From contig JBGVOL010000067.1 of the NCBI GenBank assembly GCA_045126475.1, positions 18,105 through 82,104 on the forward strand: 64,000 nt of DNA, in the 5' to 3' direction. A program made the position numbers and the translations under genes. Source of the stretch: Lachnospiraceae bacterium. Lineage in GTDB: Bacteria > Bacillota > Clostridia > Lachnospirales > Lachnospiraceae. The notes below the pieces were generated by a model that saw only the letters and a list, made by a program, of their open reading frames with translations, was not told the origin of the DNA and searched no databases. Shown in pieces: positions 43,928 to 64,000 of the stretch (positions are counted from its first letter, which is position 1; every line of letters starts with the position of its first letter).

Positions 43928-43997
43928 CAAATACTATAGATTATAATCTGATTGTTGATGTGCAATAATTGTGATTATATTCCTAGGTAAAGTGACA

Positions 43998-44024: not shown

Positions 44025-44063
44025 TTAGCAAAAGAAAAAATACATTTTTTTACAAAAAAACTA

Positions 44064-44090
44064 TAAAGTAAAAAAAAACACTGCCGATAT
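44064..44090 (+). promoter_or_regulatory. sigma-D promoter of flagellin gene 3
   Basis: TAAA (44064-44067), 15 nt, GCCGATAT (44083-44090): a perfect match to the consensus. Confidence 0.75.
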
Positions 44091-44185
44091 ATATGACATG
44101 AAGATGAAATAACAGCTTTAAATCACCTAGGGCAGATTGAAAGTGTTATCTTATCCATAACTGCAAGGAAGCGGAAAATTAAATC

Positions 44186-44249
44186 GGGCAAGGATGCTGA
44201 AACTAAAAAAATATTAAAGAAGGAATCTAAAAAAGGATTTTCAAGGAGG
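44186..44249 (+). promoter_or_regulatory. CsrA-type GGA motifs in the flagellin-3 leader
   Basis: GCA-AGGA-TGC mini-hairpin, then AGGAAT, AAGGAT and SD AAGGAGG (44243-44249). Confidence 0.4.
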
Positions 44250-44256
44250 AATTATT

Positions 44257-46615: not shown

Positions 46616-46736
46616 GGGGGGCTTTGAATAATATTTAAACTTTTGAATGAATATGTAAATAAAGTCAAGTGGTAATAGTGACTTTTTATGAAAAACTGAT
46701 ATAATTAAATAGAGAGAAAAAAGGAGGAAAGTACAT

Positions 46737-47561: not shown

Positions 47562-47562
47562 G

Positions 47563-48615: not shown

Positions 48616-48627
48616 AGGAGTTAGAGA

Positions 48628-50373
48628 ATGATAAAGGTTTCAGATTATGTATATGAATTTTTAAAGGAAAAGAAAGTCGAACATGTTTTTATGCTTCCAG
48701 GTGGTGGAGCCATGCATCTGGTTGATTCTCTCGGAAAGTCAGGAATTAATTATATATGTTTCCAGCATGAACAGGGCGCTTCAATTGCAGCAGAGGCTTA
48801 TGGACAGCATACTAACAAGCCGGGGGTGGTTTTAACTACATCAGGTCCCGGAGCGACAAATGCTATTACGGGTGTTACAGCGGGATGGATTGATTCTACG
48901 CCAATGATTGTTATATCTGGACAGGCAAAAAGATGCGATTTGGTAGGAAGCAAGGGAGTTAGACAAATAGGATCTCAAGAAGTACAGGTAGTAGATATGG
49001 TTAAGTCTATTACAAAATATGCTGTAGAGGTAATGAATCCAATAGATATCAAATACCATCTGGAAAGGGCATATTATGAGGCTACAACTGGAAGACCGGG
49101 GCCTGTATGGCTGTCTATTCCTTTAGACGTTCAAGGGGCATTTGTTGATAAGAATGGTCTTAGAGGATATGAACAAGTATATAAAAATAATCAGGAAGAT
49201 TTTGACGAGAAAATAAATCATATAGTTAATTGTATTTATAATTCCAGAAAACCGCTTATCATAGCGGGAAATGGTATTAAGTTATCAGGAGCTACAAGGG
49301 AATTTTATAAGTTTATAGAAAAATTAAATATTCCTGTGATTACTACATGGAAAACTATTGATATGTTTGATGAAAATTATAAATTGTATATTGGCCATCC
49401 TGGAATAATGGGTGACAGAGCAACTAATAAGCTGATTCAAGAAGCAGACTTGCTCATATCAATTGGAAGCAGATTAGACACAAGTATTACAGCATTTGAT
49501 GAGCCAAACTTTGCAAAAAATGCAAAAAAAATTATTATTGATATAGATGAAAATGAAATAAAAAGAATGAACATGGAAAAAGAGGTTTGGATGGCATGTG
49601 ATGCAAAGTGTGTTCTGTTAGCTCTAAATTCCAAGATTGGAGGAAAGTTTAATGTAAACCAATGGTTAGATTATTGCAGACAAATGAGAAAAAAGTACCC
49701 TGTTATAACGTCAAAACATAGGGATACAGGGAATTATGTCAGTGCATATTATTTTATTGAAGAATTATGTAGACTTTTAAGGGATGATGATGTTATAGTG
49801 CCAGAAAGCTCTGGAGCAGCAGGAGAAATAACATATCAGGCATTTAAGATAAAACAAGGACAGAAGATGAAAAATGCAGCAGGACTTGGCTCTATGGGAT
49901 TTGGACTTCCGTATGCAATAGGTTCGTGCATTGCCAATGATAAAAGAAGAACTATTCTTATAAATGGAGATGGTGCGTTTCAATTAAATATTCAAGAACT
50001 AGAGACGTTGCACAGGCTAGCACTTCCTGTAAAAATTTTTATTTGGAATAATAATGGGTATGCAAGCATTAGAAGTATGCAGAGAGGGAATTTTGATGGA
50101 CATTATGTTGCTAGCAATGAAGAGAGTGGATTCTCAGTTCCAAATTGTACAAAAATTGCTGCTGCTTATGGATTTGAAACTTGCACAATATCAGATAATG
50201 ATGAAATGTTAGAAAAATTGCCACGAATTCTCGCTGATGATAGAATGATATTATGTGAAGTTATTATTTCTCCTGATGAAACCGTTTGGCCAAGAGTAAA
50301 AGCTAAAATCTTACCGGATGGAGGTATGAAATCAGGAGCTTTAGAAGATATGTGGCCATATGAGGAGAATTAG
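48628..50373 (+). CDS. thiamine-diphosphate-dependent enzyme, acetolactate-synthase-like fold
   Basis: N-terminal PYR domain (FMLPGGGAMHLVD...TSGPGATNAITGVTAGWIDSTPMIVISGQ) and C-terminal ThDP motif (GLGSMGFGLPYAIG...INGDGAFQLNIQEL...IWNNNGY). Confidence 0.8.
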   Translation: MIKVSDYVYEFLKEKKVEHVFMLPGGGAMHLVDSLGKSGINYICFQHEQGASIAAEAYGQHTNKPGVVLTTSGPGATNAITGVTAGWIDSTPMIVISGQAKRCDLVGSKGVRQIGSQEVQVVDMVKSITKYAVEVMNPIDIKYHLERAYYEATTGRPGPVWLSIPLDVQGAFVDKNGLRGYEQVYKNNQEDFDEKINHIVNCIYNSRKPLIIAGNGIKLSGATREFYKFIEKLNIPVITTWKTIDMFDENYKLYIGHPGIMGDRATNKLIQEADLLISIGSRLDTSITAFDEPNFAKNAKKIIIDIDENEIKRMNMEKEVWMACDAKCVLLALNSKIGGKFNVNQWLDYCRQMRKKYPVITSKHRDTGNYVSAYYFIEELCRLLRDDDVIVPESSGAAGEITYQAFKIKQGQKMKNAAGLGSMGFGLPYAIGSCIANDKRRTILINGDGAFQLNIQELETLHRLALPVKIFIWNNNGYASIRSMQRGNFDGHYVASNEESGFSVPNCTKIAAAYGFETCTISDNDEMLEKLPRILADDRMILCEVIISPDETVWPRVKAKILPDGGMKSGALEDMWPYEEN

Positions 50374-50382
50374 CATAGTGAT

Positions 50383-51414
50383 ATGAAAAAAAATAAATGG
50401 ATAACAATATGGAGTTATGCTCAAAGAAAAACTACTTTTACTCGCTGGGAAAATCAGAATAGTTTTGAAATCAGATTTAAAAATAATATTGAAGGAACTA
50501 AAGTTAGAATAAGATTCAGCAATTGGTATGGTGTTCACGACACAGGCATTAAAAGTGTATATATGTTGTATGAGGGTCGTAGATACGTTACAAAATGTAA
50601 TAATGAAGAAAGATTTAGGGTTTTTCCTGATAGCGATTTAACATCAGATTATATTGAAATACATGTGGTCCCAGGAACAAATATAGGTGTGGTGGTAGAA
50701 TTTGAAAGTTTTATTAGGCCAGACTCCGGAAATACATTTGATGGTTGTATAGCAATGATTCTTCAGTCTGTAGATGTGTATACAGATAGTAAGGTGTCGG
50801 GGGTAGCATTTTTTGGAGATAGTATAACTCATAGAAGAAAATGGACAGAGCCACTTATAGATATGTGGTACGAGAAGTACAGAGGGATGATTGTAGCTTA
50901 TGAGGTGTCGATAGATGGTTCCAGGCTGTTAAAAGATTCACCGAAAGAATGTGATAACACGTTGGGTTTTTCGGCAAGAGCAAGATTTAGTCATGACATA
51001 CTAAAAAATAATGGTATTACACATATTTTTTTTGAATTAGGATTAAATGACTTGTCGCTTGAAGATATTGATAATACGTTGTCAGTGGATAATTTGATTA
51101 AAGAGATGAAAGAAATTGTTAATATGGCTCACGAACACAACATTATGGTAATTGGGATGACAATCACACCTCGAAGAGAAGACCATATATATGATTATAA
51201 AAGAAATAATATGAGAAAAAAAGTAAACGAAATAATATTGAATGGGCACATCTTTGATAAAGTAATAGATATATCTGGATTGCTTGGAAATGAGGATGAT
51301 ACTCAGTTGAGTCCTGAGTATGGATGTGAAGACGGAGTTCATTTGAATAATAAAGCAGGAGAATTTCTGTCAAAGTATATTTATAACAATATATCAGAAG
51401 ATATTCTCTTCTAA
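50383..51414 (+). CDS. SGNH/GDSL-type hydrolase with N-terminal beta-rich domain
   Basis: Block I AFFGDSITH, block III GLNDL, block V DGVHLN. Confidence 0.7.
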   Translation: MKKNKWITIWSYAQRKTTFTRWENQNSFEIRFKNNIEGTKVRIRFSNWYGVHDTGIKSVYMLYEGRRYVTKCNNEERFRVFPDSDLTSDYIEIHVVPGTNIGVVVEFESFIRPDSGNTFDGCIAMILQSVDVYTDSKVSGVAFFGDSITHRRKWTEPLIDMWYEKYRGMIVAYEVSIDGSRLLKDSPKECDNTLGFSARARFSHDILKNNGITHIFFELGLNDLSLEDIDNTLSVDNLIKEMKEIVNMAHEHNIMVIGMTITPRREDHIYDYKRNNMRKKVNEIILNGHIFDKVIDISGLLGNEDDTQLSPEYGCEDGVHLNNKAGEFLSKYIYNNISEDILF

Positions 51415-51429
51415 AGGAGAACAGAGATA

Positions 51430-52539
51430 ATGAAGAAGGTAATACTATATGGTGCAGGCACTCAAAATTTGCGAATGGCATTTCAGCCTATAGTTTCAGC
51501 GGGATATGAGGTTTTTGCAATTGTTGATAAAGATAGACAAAAACAAGGGAAAGACTTTTATGGTGTAGAAATCAATGCACCAGAAATAATAAAAAGTATT
51601 AAAGAAAATGCAGATGATTATCAGATAGTGGTTACCATTAGAACAGAAGAAACTGTACTTGAAGTAAAAGAATATTTAAAACAGATTACGAGTATTCGTG
51701 TTTATTCATTTAGTGAGTTTATTGAAAATGAAAAGCTAAACAGTAAGATTAAGAGATTTTCCTGCGTTATGTTTCATTTGGTAGATCACTGTAATATGTC
51801 TTGTGTTAGATGTTCGCACTTTTCACCATTGGCAAAGAAAAACGGGTATTATTTGTCACTTGATGAGTTTGAAAGAGATATTAAAAGGCTGAAGATACTT
51901 ACAAATGGAGATATAGATGAGATTCAGTTATCGGGTGGAGAACCATTACTGCATCCTCAAGTACATATTTTCCCTTATATTGTGCATAAGTATTTTCCGG
52001 ATACTCAGATAATAATTATAACAAATTCAATAAAAATTAAAGATATGGGTCGGGACTTTTTTGATTCATGCAGAGCAAATAAAGTAAATATATGGATATC
52101 CAGATATCCAATTGGATTGGATTATGGTGCAATAATGAAGAGATTGGAGGAAGAGGAAATATATGCTATCTTCGGAAATTCTGGAAATTCAGACAATAAG
52201 CCGAAAGAGATGTGGGGTTTACCAATGAAACTTGATGGTGGGCTTGATGGAAGAAAGAATTTTGATTGTTGCCTTTGCATGCAATATATTCTGAGAAACG
52301 GAATTATGTACCCATGTGCGAATAGTGCGTATATTGATTTGTTCAATGAATATTTCGATAAGAAATTACCAGGACCGCAAGTAAATGGTGTTGATATATA
52401 TAAAGTCAGGAATATGGAGGAATTGGCAAGAGAAATATCAAGGCCGGTTCCACTTTGTGACTATTGTGATGCAAAACACCGAAAAAGTGGAATACCATGG
52501 TGTGTGTCAAAGAAAGATATTGAAGAATGGACTATATAG
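51430..52539 (+). CDS. radical SAM enzyme (twitch/SPASM-like C-terminus) with N-terminal GxG Rossmann-like module
   Basis: N-module KKVILYGAGTQN...FAIVDKDRQKQGKDFYGVEINAPEII. Radical SAM triad HCNMSCVRC (CX3CX2C). Auxiliary CMQYILRNGIMYPC (C-X7-G-X4-C) and CDYCD. Confidence 0.8.
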   Translation: MKKVILYGAGTQNLRMAFQPIVSAGYEVFAIVDKDRQKQGKDFYGVEINAPEIIKSIKENADDYQIVVTIRTEETVLEVKEYLKQITSIRVYSFSEFIENEKLNSKIKRFSCVMFHLVDHCNMSCVRCSHFSPLAKKNGYYLSLDEFERDIKRLKILTNGDIDEIQLSGGEPLLHPQVHIFPYIVHKYFPDTQIIIITNSIKIKDMGRDFFDSCRANKVNIWISRYPIGLDYGAIMKRLEEEEIYAIFGNSGNSDNKPKEMWGLPMKLDGGLDGRKNFDCCLCMQYILRNGIMYPCANSAYIDLFNEYFDKKLPGPQVNGVDIYKVRNMEELAREISRPVPLCDYCDAKHRKSGIPWCVSKKDIEEWTI

Positions 52540-52549
52540 TGGAGGTTAT

Positions 52550-53716
52550 ATGAGTGTAGAAGAAAAAGCTGTTAGCATTGTAGGGGAAAAATATTTATTG
52601 GGATATGAATTTTATAGAAATCAAGGAATGAAAAGTTTTTTTCAAATTAAGAGGGAACAATATAAATATATGTGTATATTTGGAGCCGGAGTTCTCGGAA
52701 CTACATTGTGCAGATGGCTTAAGAATAATGGAATAGAGGTTGATTATTTCTGTGATAATAATAGAGATAGGGACAGCGCGAGAATTATGGATATTCCTTA
52801 TATAACATTTGAAGAACTTGAAGAGATTAAAAATGATGTATATGTTATGGTTTCTGTAACAAATAAGGGATGCGGTAAGAAGTATAATGAAGAGATAAAT
52901 AATCAGTTAAAAGGATTTCCGAATGTTATGCCTAATATATTGCAGTTTATTGGCTTTTATACTAATGACTATAAACTAAATTATGATATATGTATAAAGT
53001 ATGTAGAGAAAATAGTATCAACGCTGGAAGACAATAAGTCAAAAGAATTATTTCTTGAAAATCTAAAATACAAATTTATATCAGATGGTGAACCTGTTTC
53101 ATACAATACTTTGGAGAAGTTCTATAGTCCTGTTCAATACTTTTCGGAAGAATATTATAAAAATACTTCAGATGCGGTTATTGTAGACTGTGGAGCATAT
53201 AAAGGAGATACACTTTTGGAGTATATTAACCTTTTTGGAGATGAATTCACAGAATATCATTGTTTTGAAATGGATGTTGAAGCATTAGAAAAATTAAAAG
53301 TAAATGTGTCAAAACTTCCTTTGAAGATAAAGAGTAAAGTTAAGATACATCCATATGGTGTGTACAAAGAAAGAGGAGAAGCCTATTATGATATATCCAC
53401 GGAAACATTGGCATCTTGTATAAGTGAAACTGGTCAAATGAAGGCTAAATTGATTTCATTGGATGAGGAATTATATGAAAACAGGGTGACTATGATAAAT
53501 ATGGATATAGAAGGCTCTGAGTTATCGGCCCTTCAAGGTGCTGATAAAATTATTAAAAGGTGTAAGCCAATGCTTGCAATAAGTATATACCACTCTACGG
53601 AGCAATTTTTAGGTGTACCATTTTATCTGATGAATAAGTACCCATTTTATAAATACTATATGGGACTACATACTACTATAACAGATGACTGTGTATTATA
53701 TGCGGTTCCAAAGTAA
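52550..53716 (+). CDS. FkbM-family methyltransferase with N-terminal GxG Rossmann-like module
   Basis: Start moved to MSVEEK (ATG at 52550, GGAGG 5 nt upstream). N-module YMCIFGAGVLG...DYFCDNNRDRDSARIMDIPYITFEEL. FkbM motifs VIVDCGAYKGDT and INMDIEGSELSALQGA. Confidence 0.75.
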   Translation: MSVEEKAVSIVGEKYLLGYEFYRNQGMKSFFQIKREQYKYMCIFGAGVLGTTLCRWLKNNGIEVDYFCDNNRDRDSARIMDIPYITFEELEEIKNDVYVMVSVTNKGCGKKYNEEINNQLKGFPNVMPNILQFIGFYTNDYKLNYDICIKYVEKIVSTLEDNKSKELFLENLKYKFISDGEPVSYNTLEKFYSPVQYFSEEYYKNTSDAVIVDCGAYKGDTLLEYINLFGDEFTEYHCFEMDVEALEKLKVNVSKLPLKIKSKVKIHPYGVYKERGEAYYDISTETLASCISETGQMKAKLISLDEELYENRVTMINMDIEGSELSALQGADKIIKRCKPMLAISIYHSTEQFLGVPFYLMNKYPFYKYYMGLHTTITDDCVLYAVPK

Positions 53717-53737
53717 GTTTAGTTAGGAGGAATTCTT

Positions 53738-54748
53738 ATGGTAAAACGAGATAGGTTAGAATATTCTAATTTGAGAACTAGATTAGAAGAAGCGGTTCCA
53801 TTGCCCGCACCATTTGTTGTTTTTTTAGATCCATGTGGTGCCTGCAATTTTTTTTGTAAGTTTTGTCCATGCAATAATAGCGATTTCATGAGAGAACAGA
53901 GGCATGAAAAAATGTCCATGGAATTATTCTATAAAATTCTTAATGACCTTGAAGAATTCACTGAAAAGGTAAAAGTTATAAATTTGTATGGATTTGGAGA
54001 GCCACTGTTACATCCTCAATATATTGAAATGATAAAAGAGATAAAGGATAGAAATATTTGTCGAGAACTTAGGTGTACTACAAACGGATTTCTTTTATCG
54101 GAGCAAATGAACAAAAAACTAGTAGAGGCAGGAATTGATATGGTTAGAATATCGGTAGAGGCTCTAAATAGTAAAGATTATTTAGACATTTGTAATGTGA
54201 AGATAGATTTTGAACAATTTGTCAGAAACATAAAAAATTTGTATGAAATAAGCAGAGGAACAAGTACAAAGGTTTCTGTTAAAATTTTAAATGTTGCTCT
54301 TAAAGATGACAATGATGCCAACAGATTTTATGATATTTTTGAACCTATATCAGATTATACATATATTCAGGATACTACACAGGCATGGTCTGAGTTTGAT
54401 GCCTATGTACCTGAGAATAATTATAGTGCAGGTAACATTGGAGATATGAAAGATGAGGACAAAATATGCTCGTTTGCTTTAACTAATATGGCCATTCATT
54501 CAAATGGAAGTGTGGGTGTATGTCCTCAAGATTGGAAATTTGCAACCGAATATGGAAGTGTTAAAAACACATCGCTTAAAGATTTATGGGATTCAAATAA
54601 GCTTTTGGGATTTAGAGTTGCACATTTAAGTGGAAATAGGAGAAAAATTCCATATTGCAAAGATTGTGATGTTTGCGTGTCTAATGATGATGTAAGAAAA
54701 AGTGCAGACATAATAATTAAAAGATTAAAAGATAATAAAAATAGGTGA
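53738..54748 (+). CDS. radical SAM/SPASM-type enzyme (no N-module)
   Basis: FLDPCGACNFFCKFCP (CX3CX2C). C-terminal CSFALTNMAIHSNGSVGVC (C-X12-G-X4-C) and PYCKDCDVC. Confidence 0.8.
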   Translation: MVKRDRLEYSNLRTRLEEAVPLPAPFVVFLDPCGACNFFCKFCPCNNSDFMREQRHEKMSMELFYKILNDLEEFTEKVKVINLYGFGEPLLHPQYIEMIKEIKDRNICRELRCTTNGFLLSEQMNKKLVEAGIDMVRISVEALNSKDYLDICNVKIDFEQFVRNIKNLYEISRGTSTKVSVKILNVALKDDNDANRFYDIFEPISDYTYIQDTTQAWSEFDAYVPENNYSAGNIGDMKDEDKICSFALTNMAIHSNGSVGVCPQDWKFATEYGSVKNTSLKDLWDSNKLLGFRVAHLSGNRRKIPYCKDCDVCVSNDDVRKSADIIIKRLKDNKNR

Positions 54749-54753
54749 AGTGT

Positions 54754-55602
54754 ATGACAGCATTTGAACAGATGACGAAGATAATCGAAAGGCTAATACA
54801 AGATGGCTGCAAAAATTTTATTATTTACCCATATGGTATACCAGGTAAAGCTGTGCATAGAATTCTTATTGAAAAGTATGGTATAGAGCCGGTAGCAATT
54901 ATTGATGAAAAAAAAGCAACGGATGATGGTAAAATATGTAAATCAGAGCATCTTGATAGTATTGATGGAGGGGTAGTTCTTGTAGCAACAAAAAATCCTG
55001 AATGTTTGAAAGAAATTAAAGAAAAAGTAAAGGAAAAAGGTCAACGGTTCAGAGTTGAAGATGTATTACCTGTCGAGGTTGGCAGACATACATGGGGGGA
55101 AGGTATATTACCAGAATGCTCTGGATTTACAATAGAGAGAATAGGTTCTTTTTGTAGTTTCGCTAAGGGTTCGTGTGTAGTTGGAAATCATCAGATTGAT
55201 ACTGTATCCTCTAGTGCTTTATTCAATGGAATTAATTTAGATGGTGCAGATATTTTTAAGGAAAAGTGTGAAAATGTAAAACTTGGGGATATGACAGACG
55301 TAAAGAGATGTATCATAGGAAATGATGTTTGGCTTGGACGCAATGTAATTGTGTGCAATGGTGCAATAATAGGAGATGGAGTTGTGGCGGCGGCAGGAGC
55401 TGTTATAACGAAAGATGTTCCGGACTATGCGATTGTAGGCGGGGTTCCGGCGAAAATCATAAAGTATAGATATTCAGAAGAACAGATAAAAAAGTTGAAG
55501 AAAATAAAATGGTGGGATTGGAGCGATGAAAAGATTGTAGATAATTTTGAAGATTTTCATAATATAGAACGATTTTTAGATAAGCATTACCGAGATGAAT
55601 AA
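54754..55602 (+). CDS. CatB/Vat-type (XAT) hexapeptide acetyltransferase with N-terminal Rossmann-like module
   Basis: N-module NFIIYPYGIPGKAVHRIL...VAIIDEKKATDDGK. LbH repeats IGNDVWLGRNVIVCNGAIIGDGVVAAAGAVITKDVPDYAIVGGVPAKIIKYRY and tail KIKWWDWSDEKI. Start taken at ATG 54754 (AGGTGA upstream); GTG 54745 is possible. Confidence 0.8.
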   Translation: MTAFEQMTKIIERLIQDGCKNFIIYPYGIPGKAVHRILIEKYGIEPVAIIDEKKATDDGKICKSEHLDSIDGGVVLVATKNPECLKEIKEKVKEKGQRFRVEDVLPVEVGRHTWGEGILPECSGFTIERIGSFCSFAKGSCVVGNHQIDTVSSSALFNGINLDGADIFKEKCENVKLGDMTDVKRCIIGNDVWLGRNVIVCNGAIIGDGVVAAAGAVITKDVPDYAIVGGVPAKIIKYRYSEEQIKKLKKIKWWDWSDEKIVDNFEDFHNIERFLDKHYRDE

Positions 55603-55629
55603 AAAGTACATATGAAAGGAAAATAAAAA

Positions 55630-56727
55630 ATGAATATATTTGGAGAGCCTAGAACAAAGGCAGATATAATAAAACATGAGAAGTTGTTTTTGTGGGGAGC
55701 AGGATTTGCCTGCACAATGACGGTAAATTGTTTTGGAAAAGAGAAAGTTAACGGAATATTTGATAATGATGAGAGGAAATGGGGCGAAAAGCTCTGTGGT
55801 ATTGACATAATATCACCACAAAAATTAGAAGAATATAAAAATGATGATTATGTAATAGTAATTTCAACTAATGGATACGAATATGAGATAGCAGAAGGTA
55901 TAAAAGAAAAATGGAATGTTCCACAGGATAGGATTTACTGCAATTCAAACGATATACTTGAGGAATGTAGATATTTACCAAGGATTATAGAAGAAAATAT
56001 GGATAGGATATTTGCGGTAAAGGAGATGCTGGCAGATAATGATTCAAAAGAATTTTATATGAATTTTATAAAAGCGTGTTATAACAGAAATCCGTTTTTG
56101 TTTAGGGATAACAAAAGTGCAGTTGATGCTTACGAATACGCTACTGATATGGCATCTGTTGGACTGAAAGGTGGAGAAACAATTCTTGATTGTGGTGCAT
56201 TCATTGGAGATACAGCAAGATTATTTATGGGCAAGACAAAAAATAATTGTAAAATATATTGTTTTGAACCTGTTGTAGAAAATTGTAAAGAGATGGAGAA
56301 GTGGATAAAAGAAGAAAAGATAGATAATGTTTTTGTGCACAATGTAGGTGTGGGGGAGAAAAAACATAAAGACTATGTTTACTCCAATGAGGAAGTTACA
56401 ACTATGGGTGCAGTGGGGGATAACAGATTTAGAGCAGACAATCCGGTTGTAAATGAAATACTGGTAGATACTATTGATAATTTGGCAGAAGGAATAGCGG
56501 TCGACTATATAAAAATGGATATTGAGGGAGCTGAAATGGCAGCAATAAGAGGTGGAAAAAACACTATACTAAAAAATAAACCACAAATGCTAATTAGTGG
56601 ATATCACAGAATAGCGGATATGTGGGAGATTCCAGAATATGTTATTGGATTATGCAGTGAGTACAAGATATTTTTAGGTCATCAGCCACACGCACCGTTT
56701 GAGCCGGAGTTTATGTTTGTAAGATAG
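55630..56727 (+). CDS. second FkbM-family methyltransferase with N-terminal GxG Rossmann-like module
   Basis: N-module KLFLWGAGFAC...NGIFDNDERKWGEKLCGIDIISPQKL. FkbM motifs ILDCGAFIGDT and IKMDIEGAEMAAIRGG. Confidence 0.75.
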   Translation: MNIFGEPRTKADIIKHEKLFLWGAGFACTMTVNCFGKEKVNGIFDNDERKWGEKLCGIDIISPQKLEEYKNDDYVIVISTNGYEYEIAEGIKEKWNVPQDRIYCNSNDILEECRYLPRIIEENMDRIFAVKEMLADNDSKEFYMNFIKACYNRNPFLFRDNKSAVDAYEYATDMASVGLKGGETILDCGAFIGDTARLFMGKTKNNCKIYCFEPVVENCKEMEKWIKEEKIDNVFVHNVGVGEKKHKDYVYSNEEVTTMGAVGDNRFRADNPVVNEILVDTIDNLAEGIAVDYIKMDIEGAEMAAIRGGKNTILKNKPQMLISGYHRIADMWEIPEYVIGLCSEYKIFLGHQPHAPFEPEFMFVR

Positions 56728-56737
56728 GAGAATACGT

Positions 56738-57808
56738 ATGAAAAAAATGGGAATAGCGACGTTATACTTTTACAATAATTTTGGCTCAGTACTTCAGGCG
56801 TATGCTCTGAAAAATGTTTTAGAAGGAATGAACGTGGACGTTGAGTTTTTGCCGTATAAGCCGGCTATTCCTAATGTGAAGTATTTTCAAGATACGAAGC
56901 TTCAGAAAAAGTATTTTGAGAAAGGTCAGAAATTTGATGCGTTTAGGAATAAAATTTTAAATATAAAGGATGGAGATATTCGTGAGTCAAATTTACTAAA
57001 CAAGGAGTTAGATGGCTACATAGTAGGAAGCGATATAGTATGGGGAAGGGAATTTTCAAACTTGGATCCTGTTTATTTCTTGGATTTTGTTGATAAAGGT
57101 AAAGTACGTGCAACGTATGCTGCAAGTATGATTTTTAATAGTAATGGATTGCCAGAAAATGATGCAATATACGAAAAATATATACCAAAGTTTGATTACT
57201 TATCTGTTAGGGAACAATCAAGTGTTCCATACATTCAAAAACTTACAGAAAAGAAAGTATATACTGTGTTGGATCCTACACTTCTACTTAATAGTAGTCA
57301 GTATGATTCTATAGCTGATTGCACGTGCGGCAGAGAACAAAAATCGCCATATCTTTTATCGTATTTTTTAACACATGATCCTGCGGTAGTAGATTACACA
57401 AATATGATTGCAAAAAAGTTAGGCTTAAGGGTAGTTCATTTTTTTGCGGATTATCCTAAAAGGGTGTTTGATGAAAATGCAGGGGATTTCACTTTTGTAG
57501 GACCATCAGAATTTTTGGGTTTGGTAAAAAATGCCGCGTGTATTTTTACAAATTCATTCCATGGAACATGTTTCTCAATTATATATCGTAAACCCTTTTA
57601 TACATATACAGCAAAGAGGAGTTTGTTATCTAGAGTTGATAATATGGCGGAAAGATTAGATATAAAAGCACGTTGCTTTACAGATTTTAGGGATTTGAAT
57701 AAGGTTACATTGGATATTGATTACACAGAGGTAGAAAGAAGAATTGAAGTTGAAAAGAAATACTCTTTGGAATATTTAAGAAGTGTTGTGGAGGGGTTGT
57801 ATGTATAA
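56738..57808 (+). CDS. polysaccharide pyruvyl transferase family protein
   Basis: N-terminus MGIATLYFYNNFGSVLQAYALKNVLEGM and overall layout typical of PS_pyruv_trans proteins in Firmicute glycan loci (recognition by memory). Confidence 0.7.
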   Translation: MKKMGIATLYFYNNFGSVLQAYALKNVLEGMNVDVEFLPYKPAIPNVKYFQDTKLQKKYFEKGQKFDAFRNKILNIKDGDIRESNLLNKELDGYIVGSDIVWGREFSNLDPVYFLDFVDKGKVRATYAASMIFNSNGLPENDAIYEKYIPKFDYLSVREQSSVPYIQKLTEKKVYTVLDPTLLLNSSQYDSIADCTCGREQKSPYLLSYFLTHDPAVVDYTNMIAKKLGLRVVHFFADYPKRVFDENAGDFTFVGPSEFLGLVKNAACIFTNSFHGTCFSIIYRKPFYTYTAKRSLLSRVDNMAERLDIKARCFTDFRDLNKVTLDIDYTEVERRIEVEKKYSLEYLRSVVEGLYV

Positions 57809-58205
57809 TGGAGTTTATGATCAAGAGCAGTTTGCCTATATGTATGATACTTTAACAAAGTGGTTAAATGTAAAGATAAATAAAGGATCATTGGGAAAAT
57901 GTCTTATAAATAAAAACATTAATAAGATATATATATATGGTTTGGGTAATATAGGAAAAATGGCTTATGATGATATAGTCACCGAACAGGTTGAGGTAAA
58001 GTCGTTTGTTGATAAGAAATATAAAAAATACGTAGATGGATATAAGGGAATTCAAGTTATTGGAATCGAAAAATTAGGAGAACTGGATGAGGATACATAT
58101 ATCCTTGTGACGCCAGAGTATTATTTTAACGATATACTAAATGATTTAAGGGAAGGGGGAATACCATTGGATAAAATAATTACAATACCAATGGTAATTG
58201 TCTGA
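57801..58205 (+). CDS. stand-alone copy of the GxG Rossmann-like module (134 aa)
   Basis: KIYIYGLGNIGKMAYDDIV...KSFVDKKYKKYVDGYKGIQVIGIEKLGELDEDTYILVT. ATG at 57801 after GGAGGGG. Overlaps the upstream stop (ATGTATAA) and the downstream start (TGATG). Confidence 0.5.
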   Translation: MYNGVYDQEQFAYMYDTLTKWLNVKINKGSLGKCLINKNINKIYIYGLGNIGKMAYDDIVTEQVEVKSFVDKKYKKYVDGYKGIQVIGIEKLGELDEDTYILVTPEYYFNDILNDLREGGIPLDKIITIPMVIV

Positions 58206-59545
58206 TGAGAGATATTACATTAAAAGAATTTATGGAAAAGATACAATCTGAAAACAAGAAGATTGTATGTTTTGGAACAGGTCTTATGCTGGAAGATGCA
58301 ATGAGGAATAAAGATATTCTTGAAAGAATAGTTTATCTTGTAGATAATAATAGAGAAAAACAGGGAAGAAATCTGTTGGTTTTTGGAAGAGAATATAGCG
58401 TGTATTCGCCGGAGGAAATTGTTGAGAGATTAGATGAACAAACCGTGATTCTAATAACATCGGGGTATTACAAAGAGATATTAAATCAGTTGGAAACAAT
58501 GAATGGAATTGATAATACAGAAATTTATTCCTATCCTGAAATACGTGTGAATTTAAAAAAAGGGAGCGAAGAGTTTTTTGAAAAAAGAATTCTTGATGAA
58601 TGCTTAAAAGAGTATGATGAATTACTGGTACAGTTTGGAATAGATAAAGATAAAAAAAACAGGCTTATAGAAGAGAAAAAGAAATATATATTAGGTTCAA
58701 GTGTATCAGAACGCCCAGTTGTACTTCCGAGAATAATGATTATGCCTACAACAAAGTGTAATCTTAGGTGTAAAGGATGTTCGTCGCTTCTTCCTTTATT
58801 CGATAAACCATGTGATGTTGAAATAGATAAAATAATCACTGATTTAAACAGTTTTTTTGCGGCTATTGATCAATGTATAAGGATTACTATCGGGGGTGAG
58901 CCTTTTTTATATCCTCGTTTAAAGGAGGTTCTGGAATATCTTATAGATGAACAGAAGGTGCTTGGCATTATTATGATTACAAATAGTACCATTTTGCCCA
59001 AAACTGAGATAATTGAACTAATGAAGAATAAAAAGGTAATGGTTGAGGTAAGTGATTATGGTCATCTTGAGAAAATGAGTCGGCTCATTACTTTGTTGGA
59101 AAAAAATGATGTTTATTTTAAAGTTTTGACAGAGCAGAAATGGACAGACATGGGAGGCGTGCAGTATAGAAATAGAACACAAGAGGAACTGAGATTTTCA
59201 TATTTAAATTGTGAACAAAGTAGAATAATTAAAGGCGTGCACGATGGAAAGTTTTTTACGTGTGCAAGATGCGCCAGAATGCTTGCATTAGGAGTATTTA
59301 AATCCGAGAGAGATTATTTTGATTTGAGTGACGATTCTGAATATATAAGAGGAAGAATAAAAGAAATGTACAGTTATGATTATGCTGATGCCTGCAATTA
59401 TTGTGATTTGGGAAGTTTGCCGACGAAGGTTATTGATGCAGGTGTACAACTTAATGGTAGTATAGAAAAGTCAGCATACACTATTGTGAATAGAGAAGAA
59501 TATGAAAGGTTAAAAAGTGAATCGGTATTAAGAGGAAGACAATAA
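58205..59545 (+). CDS. radical SAM enzyme (twitch/SPASM-like) with N-terminal GxG Rossmann-like module
   Basis: N-module KIVCFGTGLML...VYLVDNNREKQGRNLLVFGREYSVYSPEEI. Triad KCNLRCKGC. Auxiliary CEQSRIIKGVHDGKFFTC (C-X11-G-X4-C), CARC and CNYCD. Confidence 0.8.
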   Translation: MRDITLKEFMEKIQSENKKIVCFGTGLMLEDAMRNKDILERIVYLVDNNREKQGRNLLVFGREYSVYSPEEIVERLDEQTVILITSGYYKEILNQLETMNGIDNTEIYSYPEIRVNLKKGSEEFFEKRILDECLKEYDELLVQFGIDKDKKNRLIEEKKKYILGSSVSERPVVLPRIMIMPTTKCNLRCKGCSSLLPLFDKPCDVEIDKIITDLNSFFAAIDQCIRITIGGEPFLYPRLKEVLEYLIDEQKVLGIIMITNSTILPKTEIIELMKNKKVMVEVSDYGHLEKMSRLITLLEKNDVYFKVLTEQKWTDMGGVQYRNRTQEELRFSYLNCEQSRIIKGVHDGKFFTCARCARMLALGVFKSERDYFDLSDDSEYIRGRIKEMYSYDYADACNYCDLGSLPTKVIDAGVQLNGSIEKSAYTIVNREEYERLKSESVLRGRQ

Positions 59546-59547
59546 AT

Positions 59548-61692
59548 ATGAATAATATGTCGTATTATAGTGCTGAACAGAAGCAGGTAATTGAACTGTT
59601 TAGAAATGGATTAAAAAAATATATTGATAAAAATATAGTTCTATATGGTATTGGAAGGAATACAGATGCTATTGTTGGAGAGGTAAAAGAATATAACATA
59701 ATGGGGTTAATGGATGTTTCTTCTACAGGACAAACTGTTTATGGAATGAAAGTCTTGGATGAGAGTGAGGTTATTAAATTAAAAGCAATCGTGGTTATAG
59801 TTGCAAGAGATTCAGTAATACCAATAATTTATAGCAGAATTAAGCATTTGAAAGAAAATGGAATCATTATAGTTGACTATGCAGGTAGATGTATAAATGA
59901 GTCGGAGAAATATGAGAATGATTTTCTAGAATATTGGAGTATTACAGAAGACGACCTTTTAAAAGAAATCGATAAGCATAAGGTGATTTCCTTTGATTTG
60001 TTTGATACACTTATAATGAGAAAGATTCTTAATCCGGATAATGTTTTTGAATTGGTAGAGAGAGTATTGCCTTTTGATGAAAATAAAAAAAGGGGGTTTT
60101 CTAAAATACGTCGAAAAACGGGAAAAGAATTAAGAGGGTGTCCTGACATAAATGAAATTTATAAAGAAATGGAAAAGTATGGGTTTGACACAAAAATACT
60201 TGAAGAAGGAAAGAAAATAGAAATAGATATAGAAAAAAAAATGCTTTGTCAAAGGAAAAAGATGGTTGAAATATTTGAGTATGCAGTTAATACAGGAAAA
60301 CAAGTATATATTGTTTCAGATATGTACTTGAATAAGAGTATTATTGAGAATATAGTGAATTCGTTAGGAATAACAGGATATTTGAACATTCTTGTTTCTT
60401 GCGAATATGGCAAAAGTAAGGAAAGTGGAGAATTATATAGGGAGTTAAAAAAGGAATCAGGTAGTGGACAAATACTTCATATTGGTGACAATAGAATTGT
60501 CGATGGAGAATTGGCAGAAAAGGAGGGGATAGATTCATTTTTGATTTATAGTGCATATGATATTTTTATGGCATCTTCGATGAATAAATTGCTAGTTGAT
60601 ATAAACAGTTTGGAAGAAAAGATAATATTGGGATTGCTGGCAGAGAACTTATTTAACAATCCATTTGTACTTTCTGATAGTAAGGGTAAAGTATGTATTA
60701 ATGATTTTAAACTATTTGGAAAAGCAATTATTGGTCCAATTATGGGGGAGTTCGTACATTGGCTTGTTTGTCAGGTAAATGAAAGTAAACAAGATGAGCT
60801 TTTGCTACCATCAAGAGATGGATATCTTATAAAAGTGTTGTTAGATAGTTTAAAATGTAAAAAAAACTTTTCATATAGTTATTTTAAAAGCTCCAGACGA
60901 ACGGTGTCAGTGGCAGCTACAAAAAACATGGCAGATATATTAGGATTACTAGAAAGAAAATACAATGGCACTTATGGAGATTTTCTTTATGACAGATTTG
61001 GCGTAGAACCATGTAGAGATGATGATATGAGAAATAAAATTATTGTGTGGGACAGGGACTATAGCAGCGTCAAAAAATATATATTGTCTTATGCAGAAAG
61101 TATATTAAAAAATGCTAGTAAGGAAAGAGATAATTATAATAAATATTTAAAGAAAAATAATATTATGCATGGAAGGTCATACGCTATATTTGATTTTATT
61201 GCTGGCGGAACGGTACAGCATTATTTAGAAAAAATTATTGGAAATAGGCTTGAGGGCTTTTATTTTGCAACAATGAATCTTCCTAATCGCTGGTTTGGCG
61301 TTGGAGATATAAAAAGTGCCTATGGTAATATATGTTCATATGGAGGTAAAAGCTATATAGAGAAGTATTATCTTTTACTTGAGGGTATTATGACGGATGA
61401 AAATGCTACACTTATACGTGTGGAAGATTCTGGAGAAATGGTATATGAAGAGAAAAAAAATAATAATTATAAAAATATTGCTTTGATTCAAGCAGGAATA
61501 GTAGATTATGTAAATGAACAAGATGAAATAAAACGGTTAATGGATGATTGGAAATTGTCATTCGAAATGTCTGATAAAATATTTGGGCAGATATTTGAAA
61601 ACGGATGCGTTGTCAGTGAGGATATTAAGAAAAGTTTTGAGAATGACGATAAATACATGGGGATAAAGACATATAGAATGTGGAGTAAGTAG
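59548..61692 (+). CDS. large multidomain protein: GxG Rossmann-like module + HAD-like hydrolase domain + ~350-aa domain of unknown function
   Basis: N-module NIVLYGIGRNT...MGLMDVSSTGQTVYGMKVLDESEV. HAD motif I ISFDLFDTLIMRK, motif III-like ILHIGDN. The C-terminal half has no recognisable motif. Confidence 0.55.
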   Translation: MNNMSYYSAEQKQVIELFRNGLKKYIDKNIVLYGIGRNTDAIVGEVKEYNIMGLMDVSSTGQTVYGMKVLDESEVIKLKAIVVIVARDSVIPIIYSRIKHLKENGIIIVDYAGRCINESEKYENDFLEYWSITEDDLLKEIDKHKVISFDLFDTLIMRKILNPDNVFELVERVLPFDENKKRGFSKIRRKTGKELRGCPDINEIYKEMEKYGFDTKILEEGKKIEIDIEKKMLCQRKKMVEIFEYAVNTGKQVYIVSDMYLNKSIIENIVNSLGITGYLNILVSCEYGKSKESGELYRELKKESGSGQILHIGDNRIVDGELAEKEGIDSFLIYSAYDIFMASSMNKLLVDINSLEEKIILGLLAENLFNNPFVLSDSKGKVCINDFKLFGKAIIGPIMGEFVHWLVCQVNESKQDELLLPSRDGYLIKVLLDSLKCKKNFSYSYFKSSRRTVSVAATKNMADILGLLERKYNGTYGDFLYDRFGVEPCRDDDMRNKIIVWDRDYSSVKKYILSYAESILKNASKERDNYNKYLKKNNIMHGRSYAIFDFIAGGTVQHYLEKIIGNRLEGFYFATMNLPNRWFGVGDIKSAYGNICSYGGKSYIEKYYLLLEGIMTDENATLIRVEDSGEMVYEEKKNNNYKNIALIQAGIVDYVNEQDEIKRLMDDWKLSFEMSDKIFGQIFENGCVVSEDIKKSFENDDKYMGIKTYRMWSK

Positions 61693-61700
61693 AGGTATAT

Positions 61701-62390
61701 ATGGAGCTTTCACTTGGAACAGATCAACTTAAAACATTTTTAAAATATCAGTTAGAGAATCATTTTCCGGATGGTTTAACAGAAAAAGGGTTTGGAGGAA
61801 AAGATATTGATCGTGCTATGGATATGGCATTATATAGATTAGAGAAATGTTTTAGAGCAGTGATTTTACCTGCATATAGTGATGATAGGGGAAATACATT
61901 TTTTAATCATTTACATTCGGATCAATATGCCCAGTTTTTGTATTTTTTTATGAATTCGTTATGGAAGGAATCGGAAAATAAACTAATATGCGATAAGGTT
62001 ATGTTACTTTTAAGGGATTTGAATGGCATTTTTATGACATATAAGTGCGAGATGCCTGATATTTTTTTGCTATTGCACGCAGTAGGAACGGTGATAGGAA
62101 ATGTTAAGTTTTCCGATTATCTTGTAATTCTTCAGAACGTAACCATAAATACTGGAGTAGATAATCTTGGCGCCCTGAAAATAGGAAAGGGTGTTACATT
62201 TTGTGCGGGATCAAAAGTTATTGGTGATGAACCGATAGGTGACAGAGTGAATGTTGGTGTAGATGCAGTTATTTATAAGACTAGAGTTGATAATGATAAA
62301 AGTGTTATCAGAGCATATGATGGTAGTATACAGATAAAAAAGAGTAATTTTTGCATGGCGCAGAGACATTTTAGAGATGAGATAGTGTAG
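61701..62390 (+). CDS. left-handed beta-helix acyltransferase (serine-acetyltransferase/WcaB-like)
   Basis: Helical N-terminal half followed by hexapeptide-type repeats (IGNVKFSDYLVILQNVTINTGVDNLGALKIGKGVTFCAGSKVIGDEPIGDRVNVGVDAVI). Confidence 0.6.
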   Translation: MELSLGTDQLKTFLKYQLENHFPDGLTEKGFGGKDIDRAMDMALYRLEKCFRAVILPAYSDDRGNTFFNHLHSDQYAQFLYFFMNSLWKESENKLICDKVMLLLRDLNGIFMTYKCEMPDIFLLLHAVGTVIGNVKFSDYLVILQNVTINTGVDNLGALKIGKGVTFCAGSKVIGDEPIGDRVNVGVDAVIYKTRVDNDKSVIRAYDGSIQIKKSNFCMAQRHFRDEIV

Positions 62391-62444
62391 CATTTTGACC
62401 GGGGAATTCTTATAGAGCTAAAACTAATTATGAGGAGATGTAAT

Positions 62445-64000
62445 ATGGATAGAAAGCAATATAACGAACAGTTAGATAAAGTTGAAAGAATGATTGACAA
62501 ATCGGAATATGTTGATAAATCAGTTTTTGAAGTTCTTGATGAGTTGTATGCTTTTAAGCCTGTATCTACCAGATATCATCAGCTAAAATGTAAAGCTCTA
62601 ATGAAAAATGGTGATATTTCAAATCTTTTGACAATGTATGGTGAGTTGTACAGTAAGGAAGCTGTGTATGAAGGAAATATAGAATTATGGCAGCAGTTAA
62701 TAGAGGTAATGCACCTTCAAAATAATGAAATGGAGGCTGAGAGGCAGACTTATCTACTTAACAAACTTTTATTTAATAATAAGAATTCAATAACAGAAAA
62801 GGAGTTGGATGATGTCAAAAAAGAGTTTATTAATGGTAATGAGAGTGTAGGTGTAGTTGCAAAAATGGAACAAAAATACTTTTCTTCTAATCAACAGCTT
62901 TTGGCTATGATTACATATTTGTATGGATGCCTTATGTATGAAGGTTATCGTGATAAAGAAAGAGAAAAACAGTATTATAACACGGATAATATGTTATATA
63001 TGAGTGAACGTATAAGTGATAAGTCGACAGTTATTATTATTTCGGATAAAGAAGACGAATCCGATTATGATATTTTATCCTATATGCTCCATAAGCTGGG
63101 AGTATCAGTGTATATGATATCTAAGCCAATAGAGATAGAGGGCGCATACAATCTTAAGGATACGGTTAGTATTAGTATAGATAACATTATTCAGTATGAT
63201 GATTGTGTAGTTATTCCATCTGTGTCAAATAATAGTGAAGATAAGATTAGTGAGCAGTGCAGGAATAACATTCCGTATTTAGTTGACTATATATGTAAAG
63301 AATATACAAATAAAGATTTTGCGATGGTAATTGGGCAGAATAAAAATCTTGAGAAACTTGGCAGTAACAAAGATATATCAAAAAGATTTACTAGATTAAG
63401 TTCCTATGAAGTAACTTATATGGAGGACAGAGTAGGATTTGCTAGGGCAGGAAATTACCTTTCATATATTGAAAATATGTTTGAGTGTCAGGTGAAGGAA
63501 CTTGTATATAGAAAGCCGACATGTAAATTTTCTATAGTTATTCCGGCAAGAAATTCATCAAAAACCCTAGAGTACACACTTAAAACCTGCCTTTCTCAGG
63601 ATTACCCAGGTGAGTATGAAATAGTGTTGAGTGATAATTCGTCACAAGGTAATGAACAGATATATGAACTGTATAAGGAGCTGAATGATAAGAAAATTGT
63701 ATATTATAGGACACCAAGACAGTTATCCTTATCAAAAAGTTTTGAGTATGCTTATTTGCAAACAAAAGGGGAGTTTGTCATTCCTGTTGGTTCGGATGAT
63801 GGAATATTTCCATGGGCATTACAGGCATTAGATGTAATCTTAAATAGCCGAGAATACGCTGATATTGTTGTTTGGGAAAGAGGCTTCTATGCATGGCCGG
63901 GATTTAACGGAGGACAGCAAAATCAGTTGGATATATTTAGGATTCAAGATAAGTTTGAAATAAATGTAGTTGATGTAAATAAAAAATCTATGTGGGATTT
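62445..64000 (+). CDS. large glycosyltransferase: ~370-aa N-terminal extension + GT2 domain (3' end outside window)
   Basis: Not in the ORF track because it runs off the window. My translation from ATG 62445 (GAGGAG RBS) has no stop to base 64000. The GT2 core is KFSIVIPARNSSKTLEYTLKTCLSQDYPGEYEIVLSDNSS...VIPVGSDDG. Confidence 0.7.
   Translation, partial: MDRKQYNEQLDKVERMIDKSEYVDKSVFEVLDELYAFKPVSTRYHQLKCKALMKNGDISNLLTMYGELYSKEAVYEGNIELWQQLIEVMHLQNNEMEAERQTYLLNKLLFNNKNSITEKELDDVKKEFINGNESVGVVAKMEQKYFSSNQQLLAMITYLYGCLMYEGYRDKEREKQYYNTDNMLYMSERISDKSTVIIISDKEDESDYDILSYMLHKLGVSVYMISKPIEIEGAYNLKDTVSISIDNIIQYDDCVVIPSVSNNSEDKISEQCRNNIPYLVDYICKEYTNKDFAMVIGQNKNLEKLGSNKDISKRFTRLSSYEVTYMEDRVGFARAGNYLSYIENMFECQVKELVYRKPTCKFSIVIPARNSSKTLEYTLKTCLSQDYPGEYEIVLSDNSSQGNEQIYELYKELNDKKIVYYRTPRQLSLSKSFEYAYLQTKGEFVIPVGSDDGIFPWALQALDVILNSREYADIVVWERGFYAWPGFNGGQQNQLDIFRIQDKFEINVVDVNKKSMWD

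Follow-up and report, generated by a model that had tools for sequence, protein, structure and literature searches.

A Rossmann-like module of the C2185-like_N family recurs on seven proteins of a glycan island beside flagellin genes in a Lachnospiraceae bacterium

In PglD, NeuD and VioB (PF17836, TIGR03570), a Rossmann-like N-domain precedes the catalytic domain and holds the uridine diphosphate (UDP) of the substrate; Asp40 and Ser11 of a PglD-type enzyme touch the ribose and Asp41 the uracil, and these residues correspond to D35, S13 and D36 of PglD (PMC8040287). The domain of unknown function (DUF) classed as CoA_binding_3 (PF13727), found in WbaP, EpsZ and PglF/WbpM-like proteins, is likewise accessory to unrelated glycan-pathway catalytic domains, and the roles shown for it are dimerisation and regulation by uridine monophosphate (UMP). 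On its own, the WbaP DUF gains stability from UMP, UDP and UTP and loses it with UDP-Gal, full-length WbaP is inhibited by UMP with a half-maximal inhibitory concentration of 4.1 uM, and the DUF forms most of the dimer interface; the authors proposed a 'one-size-fits-all' regulation common to WbaP and PglF-like dehydratases (PMC10942596). A screen of 20 nucleotides gave uridine nucleotides as ligands of this DUF, and its annotation as a CoA-binding domain was not borne out (PMC10942596). For EpsZ, beta-sheet augmentation between DUFs and a response regulator acting on the dimer have been modelled (PMC12802240). Here we describe a related module that sits on seven proteins, which we call A, B, D, E, G, H and I, encoded in a glycan island of a Lachnospiraceae bacterium (GenBank assembly GCA_045126475.1, contig JBGVOL010000067.1). 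The stretch analysed, called the window below, comprises 64,000 nucleotides (positions 18,105 to 82,104 of the contig's forward strand), and all coordinates are those of the window.

A preliminary description of the window, made from the sequence alone, had claimed that the same N-terminal module opens seven named open reading frames (ORFs). All seven lie on the + strand at the coordinates given there and agree with independent gene calls on an identical public contig. Pairwise BLAST comparison of the N-termini was marginal (best E-values of 6e-4 to 1e-3 in a ten-sequence database), and we therefore built a family profile from unrelated database proteins. A profile of the seven modules was searched exhaustively against 1.84 billion representative proteins, domains were re-collected from the 150 best representatives with a seed that lacked D and I, and relatives of I were removed, leaving 234 domains. 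When this leave-out profile was scored on all 293 six-frame ORFs of the window, it matched exactly the seven named ORFs, with E-values of 6.7e-25 to 4.8e-6, and the next best ORF stood at 0.055. Because the profile picks out only these seven, including the held-out D (3.8e-7) and I (4.8e-6), the similarity reflects homology and not composition, and the claim of a common module is confirmed.

At the level of profile and fold, the module belongs to the C2185-like_N family (PF22674), a Rossmann-like domain of about 95 residues that is ancient and evolutionarily mobile. Related to it as siblings are PglD_N, the C-terminal half of the Methyltransf_14 domain of sugar C-methyltransferases, and the CoA_binding_3 DUF found in large phosphoglycosyl transferases and in PglF-like dehydratases. 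Sub-threshold matches to Pfam and NCBIfam models point to PglD_N, C2185-like_N, CoA_binding, the second half of Methyltransf_14, the N-terminal part of NeuD_NnaD, and Rex. The sole window match to PF22674.2 is G, at 16.2-17.8 bits against a gathering score of 27; precomputed PF22674.3 matches exist for E and G (E-values of at most 1e-5) and faintly for A, with none on B, D, H or I. We also compared a 66-sequence family profile with the sequences in the PDB. The best match was the N-domain of 3NKL (E-value 6.3e-14), deposited as UDP-D-quinovosamine 4-dehydrogenase and, by our own reading, a WbpM/PglF-type protein, followed by Rex (2VT2, 3e-10; 5ZZ5, 1.9e-9), VioB (7TXP, 6.4e-6), residues 3-90 of an uncharacterised C. 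acetobutylicum protein (2G6T, 2.5e-5) and the DUF of WbaP (residues 148-240, 3e-3); residues 319-393 of the sugar C-methyltransferase 4RV9 and the FkbM protein 2PY6 scored 0.19 and 0.5. Structure comparison agreed. An AlphaFold2 model of G, with a predicted local distance difference test score (pLDDT) of 87 and a predicted template modelling score (pTM) of 0.79, contains a beta-alpha-beta Rossmann-like domain after a helical leader, and its top Foldseek match was 2G6T (E-value 9.6e-5, 27% identity, root-mean-square deviation 2.1 A over 93 columns), ahead of 2PY6, WbaP, Rex and 3NKL; G, the copy tested as an isolated domain, shares the fold of the 2G6T N-domain. These results bear out the resemblance to PglD_N and CoA_binding_3-type Rossmann domains pointed out in the preliminary description. 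In addition, a stand-alone module from another Lachnospiraceae locus (L076, see below) scores 62 bits on PF22674 and 5e-10 against 2G6T and is caught by the same profile as the seven window modules; because it matches all three, it ties PF22674, 2G6T and the window modules together.

The window proteins nonetheless differ from each of these relatives. In the PglD/NeuD/VioB group the Gly-loop and the Asp of strand 2 align with those of the module, and the N-terminal part of the NeuD_NnaD model matches B, E and G, but PglD lacks the 'K-x-G....G-x-V-x-S-P' segment of the window family. The partner of the PglD/NeuD domain is always a NeuD-type left-handed beta-helix, whereas the sole hexapeptide partner here, in D, is of the Vat/CatB type and the other partners have unrelated folds. 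The best PF17836 score, that of G, is 21.6-22.6 bits against a cutoff of 23.4, and B reaches 28.4 bits on TIGR03570, in the N-terminal part only, against a cutoff of 160.8; TIGR03570 covers only the C-terminal 50 residues of D, and no module is followed by a NeuD-type beta-helix. The CoA_binding_3 DUF and 3NKL share the motif G-x-G...[FI]-x-D-[DN]-x-x-x-K-x-x-x-x-x-x-G-[IV], but PF13727 gave no match up to an E-value of 10 with the excised modules or 1 with the full proteins. A transmembrane bundle precedes that DUF, whereas the window proteins look soluble: no four-helix transmembrane bundle was seen by eye before any module, and the modules begin 0-37 residues in, after hydrophilic or helical leaders. 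A, B, E and H match Methyltransf_14 (PF08484; TcaB9, KijD1/4RV9) only over its second half, at positions ~57-150 of 160, with 13.6-21.9 bits against a cutoff of 23.5. In the Methyltransf_14 proteins this domain lies C-terminally, after a zinc domain and a class I methyltransferase, whereas the window module is N-terminal; in TcaB9 the domain holds the dTDP-sugar. Rex/CoA_binding domains give strong profile and fold matches and share the G-x-G...D...K-x-G motif, but Rex binds NAD(H) and contacts DNA through a winged-helix domain, and the window proteins lack such a domain and lie in a glycan-synthesis context.

Two solved structures come closest. 2G6T, an HI1244 homologue, is the crystal structure of PF22674; its subgroup has a loop of the W-G-x-N type, unlike the window modules, and a C-terminal domain of about 200 residues follows its N-domain. 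2PY6, a structural-genomics FkbM methyltransferase from Methylobacillus flagellatus, has the same order of module, helical linker and FkbM domain as E. The AlphaFold2 model of E (pLDDT 84, pTM 0.83) superposes on 2PY6 over its full length, N-domain included (TM-scores 0.73/0.71, 380 columns, E-value 2.9e-21), at only 20% identity, a distance at which the sequence profile barely sees the N-domain of 2PY6. Because of this full-length superposition we regard the arrangement as a standard, already solved architecture, and the N-terminal extension of B and E is a normal part of an FkbM subfamily. The preliminary description had stated beforehand that extensions integral to each of the catalytic families would refute its reading; this is the situation in B and E, and 2PY6 offers no parallel for the radical SAM, hexapeptide or HAD-like fusions. 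Literature searches found no functional work on the C2185-like_N family, 2G6T or 2PY6.

Where six different catalytic partners had been counted, we find four enzyme families, namely radical SAM (twice), FkbM (twice), a hexapeptide acetyltransferase and a weak HAD-like region, together with one stand-alone copy. A (51430-52539, 369 residues) begins with the module (residues 1-101, 51430-51732; family profile E-value 8.7e-18) and continues as a radical SAM protein (Radical_SAM 1.2e-8), with the CxxxCxxC motif CNMSCVRC at residue 121 and 35.7 bits on PF04055 against a cutoff of 29.5. H (58205-59545, 446 residues) has the module at residues 15-117 (58247-58555; 9.5e-21), then a linker and a radical SAM domain (Radical_SAM 1.8e-7; CNLRCKGC at residue 185; PF04055 31.9 bits), and its module matches Methyltransf_14 positions 57-149 at 1.6e-4. 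Neither A nor H reached the cutoff of any NCBIfam radical SAM subfamily. B (52550-53716, 388 residues) and E (55630-56727, 365 residues) are FkbM methyltransferases whose sequences can be aligned end to end. The module of B occupies residues 36-140 (52655-52969; 1.9e-22), followed by a Methyltransf_21 match (1.5e-10), and the N-terminal part of the NeuD_NnaD model matches at 1.1e-6; that of E occupies residues 15-112 (55672-55965; 6.7e-25) and is separated from the catalytic domain by a helical linker. In D (from 54745, with a GTG start, or 54754, to 55602) the module (residues 20-111, 54802-55077) precedes a Vat/CatB-type hexapeptide acetyltransferase domain, whose best matches are a phosphonate-metabolism hexapeptide transferase model (5.2e-32), Vat (1.3e-31, below its curated cutoff), ApmA and CatB. 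G (57801-58205, 134 residues) is the stand-alone copy, with the module at residues 38-134 (57912-58202; 9.5e-19) behind a leader of ~37 residues, and it has sub-threshold matches to PglD_N (1.6e-4), C2185-like_N (4e-3) and CoA_binding (5e-3). I (59548-61692, 714 residues) carries the module at residues 25-118 (59620-59901), then a weak HAD-like region (approximately residues 136-340) and a C-terminal region of 373 residues. Its HAD_2 matches have E-values of 1.6e-4 to 1.2e-3 and 19.4-22.3 bits against a cutoff of 23.8, HAD-IA scores 22.5 against 23.3, and its F-D-L-F-D-T-L segment reads D-x-x-D-T, with a spacing other than that of the canonical HAD motif I, DxDx[TV]. The C-terminal 373 residues (60571-61689) have no relative in Pfam or among PDB sequences; residues 136-575 are in part shared with a 1366-residue protein, P0042, that has at least two modules. 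D and I are clearly the most divergent of the seven copies.

The module is widespread and promiscuous in its fusion partners. The exhaustive search returned 11,316 representative clusters (50% identity) at an E-value of 1e-3 or better and 237 at 1e-10 or better. Partners among the 150 best representatives were FkbM (25), glycosyltransferase family 2 (GT2; 16), GT1/GT4 (12), cytidylyltransferase-like domains (7), radical SAM (7), LicD (6) and NKWYS (6), with class I methyltransferases, GT8, sulfatase, TupA-type ATP-grasp and GDSL domains besides. Pfam neighbours of the module in the same set were Methyltransf_14 (44, the most frequent), PglD_N (36) and, below threshold, CoA_binding (17), and the module was N-terminal in 98 instances, internal in 72, C-terminal in 46 and stand-alone in 10. 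Of these top-scoring proteins, about half contain two modules and a few contain a tandem triplet, in a list of 150 that is biased to multi-copy proteins. Three modules lie back to back in P0009 (residues 1-288) and in P0008 (residues 36-354), where a cytidylyltransferase-like domain follows them. The idea that such a domain normally partners only with a hexapeptide domain does not hold, as this family and its siblings occur in fusions with dozens of types of enzyme. In a genome scan, the subfamily that combines FkbM with the module was found in Acidobacteriota, Bacteroidota, Firmicutes, Proteobacteria, Planctomycetota, Verrucomicrobiota and other phyla.

We surveyed 80 loci of ~20 kb each, retrieved by alignment to FkbM plus module and biased accordingly to FkbM-containing loci. 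No module-bearing ORF was detected in 11 loci, one in 36, two in 19, three in six, and four to ten in the remaining eight. Seven of these eight dense loci are from Lachnospiraceae: an Acetatifactor locus with 8 copies, a Roseburia locus with 9, and five from metagenome-assembled genomes (MAGs) with 4, 5, 7, 7 and 10. The eighth, from Paenibacillus qinlingensis, has 6 copies, and a flagellin is close by. The densest, L076 (a Lachnospiraceae MAG, 3-17074), has ten module ORFs within 17 kb: the stand-alone module mentioned above, a 158-residue protein, a radical SAM/SPASM enzyme, two GT2, two FkbM, a GT32-like, a GT4 and a GT-D enzyme, and in the GT-D, GT4, GT32-like and both GT2 enzymes the module is C-terminal. 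The 158-residue protein has a hydrophobic N-terminal segment. Because other Lachnospiraceae loci hold 4-10 copies, the module density of the window is a recurrent trait of Lachnospiraceae glycan islands and not a singular system. A flagellin lay within the flanks (up to 10 kb) in two of the 80 loci, a flank too short for a fair test, given that the window's own flagellin is itself ~10 kb from E. The preliminary description knew of no described system with this architecture; PF22674, 2G6T and 2PY6 are in fact known, and loci with five to ten such genes recur in Lachnospiraceae. Databases already show the domain and its promiscuity, and what is new to the literature searched is that whole islands are decorated with it.

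The fusions in the island are old. A locus in an Acetatifactor sp. MAG (L007; CAJTOJ010000004.1, 7853-21073) has orthologues of all ten genes A-J of the island, at 39-72% identity and in another order, and G is kept there as a stand-alone protein at 52% identity. L007 also has an extra gene coding for a module and an FkbM-like domain, at 11786-13003. For A, B, D, G and H the best outside match of the module is the L007 orthologue with the same partner; for E that orthologue comes second, just behind a 132-residue representative that resembles a fragment of an E-type protein; and the module of I has weak matches only, because L007 ends inside the I orthologue. Beyond orthologues, the closest relatives of each window module are attached to partners of various types, which bears out, in the evolutionary sense, the earlier claim that the module is portable. 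We also considered recent duplication or shuffling within the island and rejected it: the seven window modules are not one another's closest relatives, and orthologues with the same partners are present in L007. Because the fusions are conserved with the same partners in Acetatifactor, these comparisons indicate that the island fusions are old and stable and not a recent local invention, and that the module has been mobile over long evolutionary times.

Nucleotide binding is the biochemical function that we infer with the best support, because the most conserved positions of the module align with the UDP-holding residues of PglD-type enzymes. Across the 234 family domains, the first and second Gly of the loop after strand 1 are conserved in 98% and 86%, and the Asp that closes strand 2 in 95%. 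The stabilisation of the isolated WbaP DUF by uridine nucleotides (PMC10942596) points the same way. All seven window copies have the Asp; the G-x-G pattern attributed to all seven stands in six and is replaced by P-Y-G in D. In the profile alignment the Gly-loop and the Asp correspond to G11-A-S13 and D35 of PglD, in a numbering consistent with the published structure work (PMC8040287). The next position, which would contact the base, is K, N, E, N, K, N and V in the seven copies. A preference for cytosine or uracil might be read from D-N as opposed to D-D, but we rejected this reading, since VioB acts on a dTDP-sugar and has D-N as well, and since the seven copies vary at this position.

We tentatively propose, with a probability of roughly 0.45, that the module in the island's tailoring enzymes binds the nucleotide handle of the substrate. 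The Gly-rich loop that follows strand 1, together with the near-invariant Asp that ends strand 2, would hold the ribose-phosphate part of the nucleotide. In the radical SAM, FkbM, hexapeptide and HAD-like enzymes the module would form one half of a composite substrate site, the half that grips the nucleotide, and the enzymes could then act on nucleotide-activated sugars produced by the genes upstream. Apart from the module, we detected in the island's tailoring enzymes no domain for binding a nucleotide sugar. We favour a substrate-handle role because of the precedents of PglD and of the sugar C-methyltransferases and because the geometry of module and FkbM domain is conserved and apparently rigid between the model of E and 2PY6; the pTM of the E model and its full-length fit at 20% identity are what suggest a rigid coupling of module and catalytic domain.

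Several observations weigh against this proposal. The module also occurs on GT2, GT4, GT-D and GT32-like enzymes, each equipped with its own glycosyltransferase domain. G and other stand-alone forms, like proteins with two or three tandem copies, are hard to reconcile with substrate docking for a catalytic domain on the same chain. The FkbM enzymes whose glycan roles are known, NoeI among them, methylate glycans after assembly and are not known to act on nucleotide sugars. Within the window, the Gly-loop of D is degenerate and the base-contact residue is variable among the seven copies. Lastly, among related domains biochemical work exists for the WbaP DUF alone, and the role assigned there is dimerisation and allosteric UMP sensing, not binding of the substrate (PMC10942596). 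The preliminary description went further and had all seven modules dock to one common nucleotide-linked sugar. Such a single, uniform docking role has these same points against it. A common sugar is doubtful: the island appears to hold at least two precursor routes, described below, and the base-contact residue differs among the copies. Overall, the earlier observation is confirmed and its interpretation is partly supported.

The main rival to a substrate-handle role is that the module is a regulatory or dimerisation domain, which would bind released nucleoside mono- or diphosphate or a nucleotide sugar allosterically, would dimerise, or both, such that one metabolite throttles many enzymes of a pathway. 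By analogy with the related DUFs we consider this possible, if on balance unlikely. The WbaP DUF, a profile and structural neighbour of the module, sets the precedent with its dimer interface and inhibition by UMP (PMC10942596), as does EpsZ with its modelled DUF-DUF augmentation and the response regulator on its dimer (PMC12802240). The occurrence of the module on glycosyltransferases with their own catalytic domains and on cytidylyltransferases, and the existence of tandem and stand-alone forms, also suit regulation. On the other hand, the window modules have no match to the CoA_binding_3 model and none of the four-helix membrane bundle that precedes the DUF of phosphoglycosyl transferases, and the orientation of module and FkbM domain is fixed down to 20% identity, which is more like an enzyme core than a tethered sensor. 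Moreover, the closer siblings bind the nucleotide of the substrate: Methyltransf_14 does so, and so does PglD_N (PMC8040287).

A broader and more speculative suggestion, which we would not bet on, is that the module and its CoA_binding_3 sibling together form a pathway-wide nucleotide-reading tag, self-associating tag, or both, of bacterial glycan islands, coupling up to ten chemically unrelated enzymes per locus (radical SAM enzymes and methyl-, acetyl-, glycosyl- and phosphotransferases) to a single nucleotide pool or into one complex, with G and other stand-alone copies as adaptors. If true, this tag would be comparable to the docking domains of polyketide synthases and nonribosomal peptide synthetases, and would extend the 'one-size-fits-all' regulation of large phosphoglycosyl transferases and PglF to whole pathways.

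Assembly tagging and adenine-dinucleotide binding are less likely than regulation. A pure protein-protein tag, by which the module enzymes and G would associate through their Rossmann-like sheets into a tailoring complex, with nucleotide binding vestigial, seems improbable to us. Seven of ten consecutive genes here, and five to ten genes per ~20 kb in other Lachnospiraceae loci and one Paenibacillus locus, bear the module, the stand-alone G is conserved at 52% identity in L007, and some proteins have three modules back to back (for example residues 1-288 of P0009), all of which would suit a complex, as would the dimerisation of the related DUFs through sheet augmentation (PMC10942596, PMC12802240). 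However, the two best-conserved positions are the ligand-binding Gly-loop and Asp, and because of this a small-molecule site is likely to be under selection; furthermore, most loci outside Lachnospiraceae have one to three module ORFs (in the survey, one in 36 of 80 loci and two or three in 25). It is more improbable again that the module binds an adenine dinucleotide or CoA, such as NAD(H) or CoA, in the manner of Rex/CoA_binding and links tailoring to the redox or acyl-CoA state. Rex ranks high among both the sequence and the structure matches, CoA_binding is matched below threshold by G and 17 of the 150 representatives, and GxGxxG...D is the classic dinucleotide-binding fingerprint; but the ~95-residue module, with the sheet seen in the models, falls short of the size of a complete dinucleotide-binding Rossmann domain, its genes consistently lie in a glycan-synthesis context, and the CoA annotation of the sibling DUF was not upheld when 20 nucleotides were screened and uridine nucleotides proved to be the ligands (PMC10942596). 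Finally, a compositional or convergent coincidence of AT-rich N-termini, which the weak pairwise E-values and the low GC content of the island (31-35%) might suggest, is ruled out for practical purposes by the leave-out profile (3.8e-7 and 4.8e-6 for the held-out D and I, 1e-17 to 1e-25 for the others and 0.055 for the next window ORF), by the predicted fold in G and E, the two copies modelled, with the Foldseek matches of G and the superposition of E on 2PY6, and by the 11,316 clusters found in the representative library.

The surroundings of the module genes are those of a flagellar and glycan locus. The glycan island (45.8-64 kb) is a low-GC gene array with all genes on one strand (GC 31-35% across 46000-64000), and the flagellar genes upstream of it have a GC content of 38-43%. 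It lies directly downstream of three GT2 paralogues (36196-40466, + strand; Glycos_transf_2 in Pfam) and three flagellin paralogues (40718-45711, + strand), both identified from their ORFs and N-terminal sequences. The GT2 paralogues stand in tandem with near-identical N-termini (KLTISILASNRKDTLPKTLESIK...), and so do the flagellins, of 481-485 residues; the two triplets look like recent local duplications of a glycosyltransferase and its presumed substrate. The surrounding flagellar locus also codes for rod/hook-type proteins and, as we read the N-terminal sequences, FliD and FliS. The island opens with precursor genes (45845-51414, + strand) that match Pfam models for an RfbF-like NTP_transferase, NeuB, a fusion of HAD and SIS domains, a thiamine diphosphate (ThDP) enzyme and a GDSL hydrolase. 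NeuB has 274 residues and consists of the NeuB domain alone, and the HAD part of the fusion is KdsC-like. This gene set suggests at least two sugar routes, one with the NTP_transferase and the ThDP enzyme and the other with NeuB and the HAD-SIS fusion, the latter suggesting an ulosonic acid as product. The RfbF-like NTP_transferase and the large ThDP enzyme are reminiscent of branched-chain CDP-sugar pathways such as that of YerE. No CMP-sugar synthetase was seen in the 64-kb window.

Ten genes, A-J, follow the precursor genes, and seven of them bear the module. The other three, all on the + strand, are C (53738-54748), a radical SAM/SPASM enzyme (Radical_SAM 2.7e-21, SPASM 2e-10) for which the family profile gives a domain E-value of 13; F (56738-57808), a polysaccharide pyruvyl transferase (PS_pyruv_trans 1e-33) with no profile match up to an E-value of 10; and J (61701-62390), a CysE/WcaB-like hexapeptide acetyltransferase (EpsC/CysE ~6e-10, below cutoff) in which the profile likewise finds no module up to an E-value of 10. 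C and D overlap by 4 nt (54745-54748, with the GTG start of D), F and G by 8 nt (57801-57808), and G and H by 1 nt in TGATG (58203-58207); the stop/start overlaps of the stand-alone G with its neighbours suggest translational coupling. After J comes a 766-residue GT2 protein with a long N-terminal non-GT region (62445-64000, running past the window end), and beyond it, on the identical contig (L001), a gene for an NAD-dependent epimerase/dehydratase; neither bears the module. Far upstream, at 15704-17615, an AAA_21 ATPase gene (AbiEii/OLD-like, 407 residues) overlaps by 8 nt a gene for an RloB-like protein (231 residues), a pair of a type typical of candidate anti-phage defence systems.

The domain described here is very common and is present on most enzymes of some Lachnospiraceae loci, and we found only two structures of it, both unpublished and from structural genomics. 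The window is not unique, since an Acetatifactor genome has the same gene set and richer examples occur elsewhere. If the module reads the nucleotide handle of the substrate, it would mark radical SAM, FkbM and HAD-like enzymes that act at the nucleotide-sugar stage, and would aid the prediction of flagellin and cell-wall glycan structures in gut Firmicutes. If it is instead a sensor of by-products or an assembly tag, the regulation proposed for WbaP and PglF would extend to entire pathways. Under either role, the stand-alone 134-residue protein G is a convenient soluble test object.

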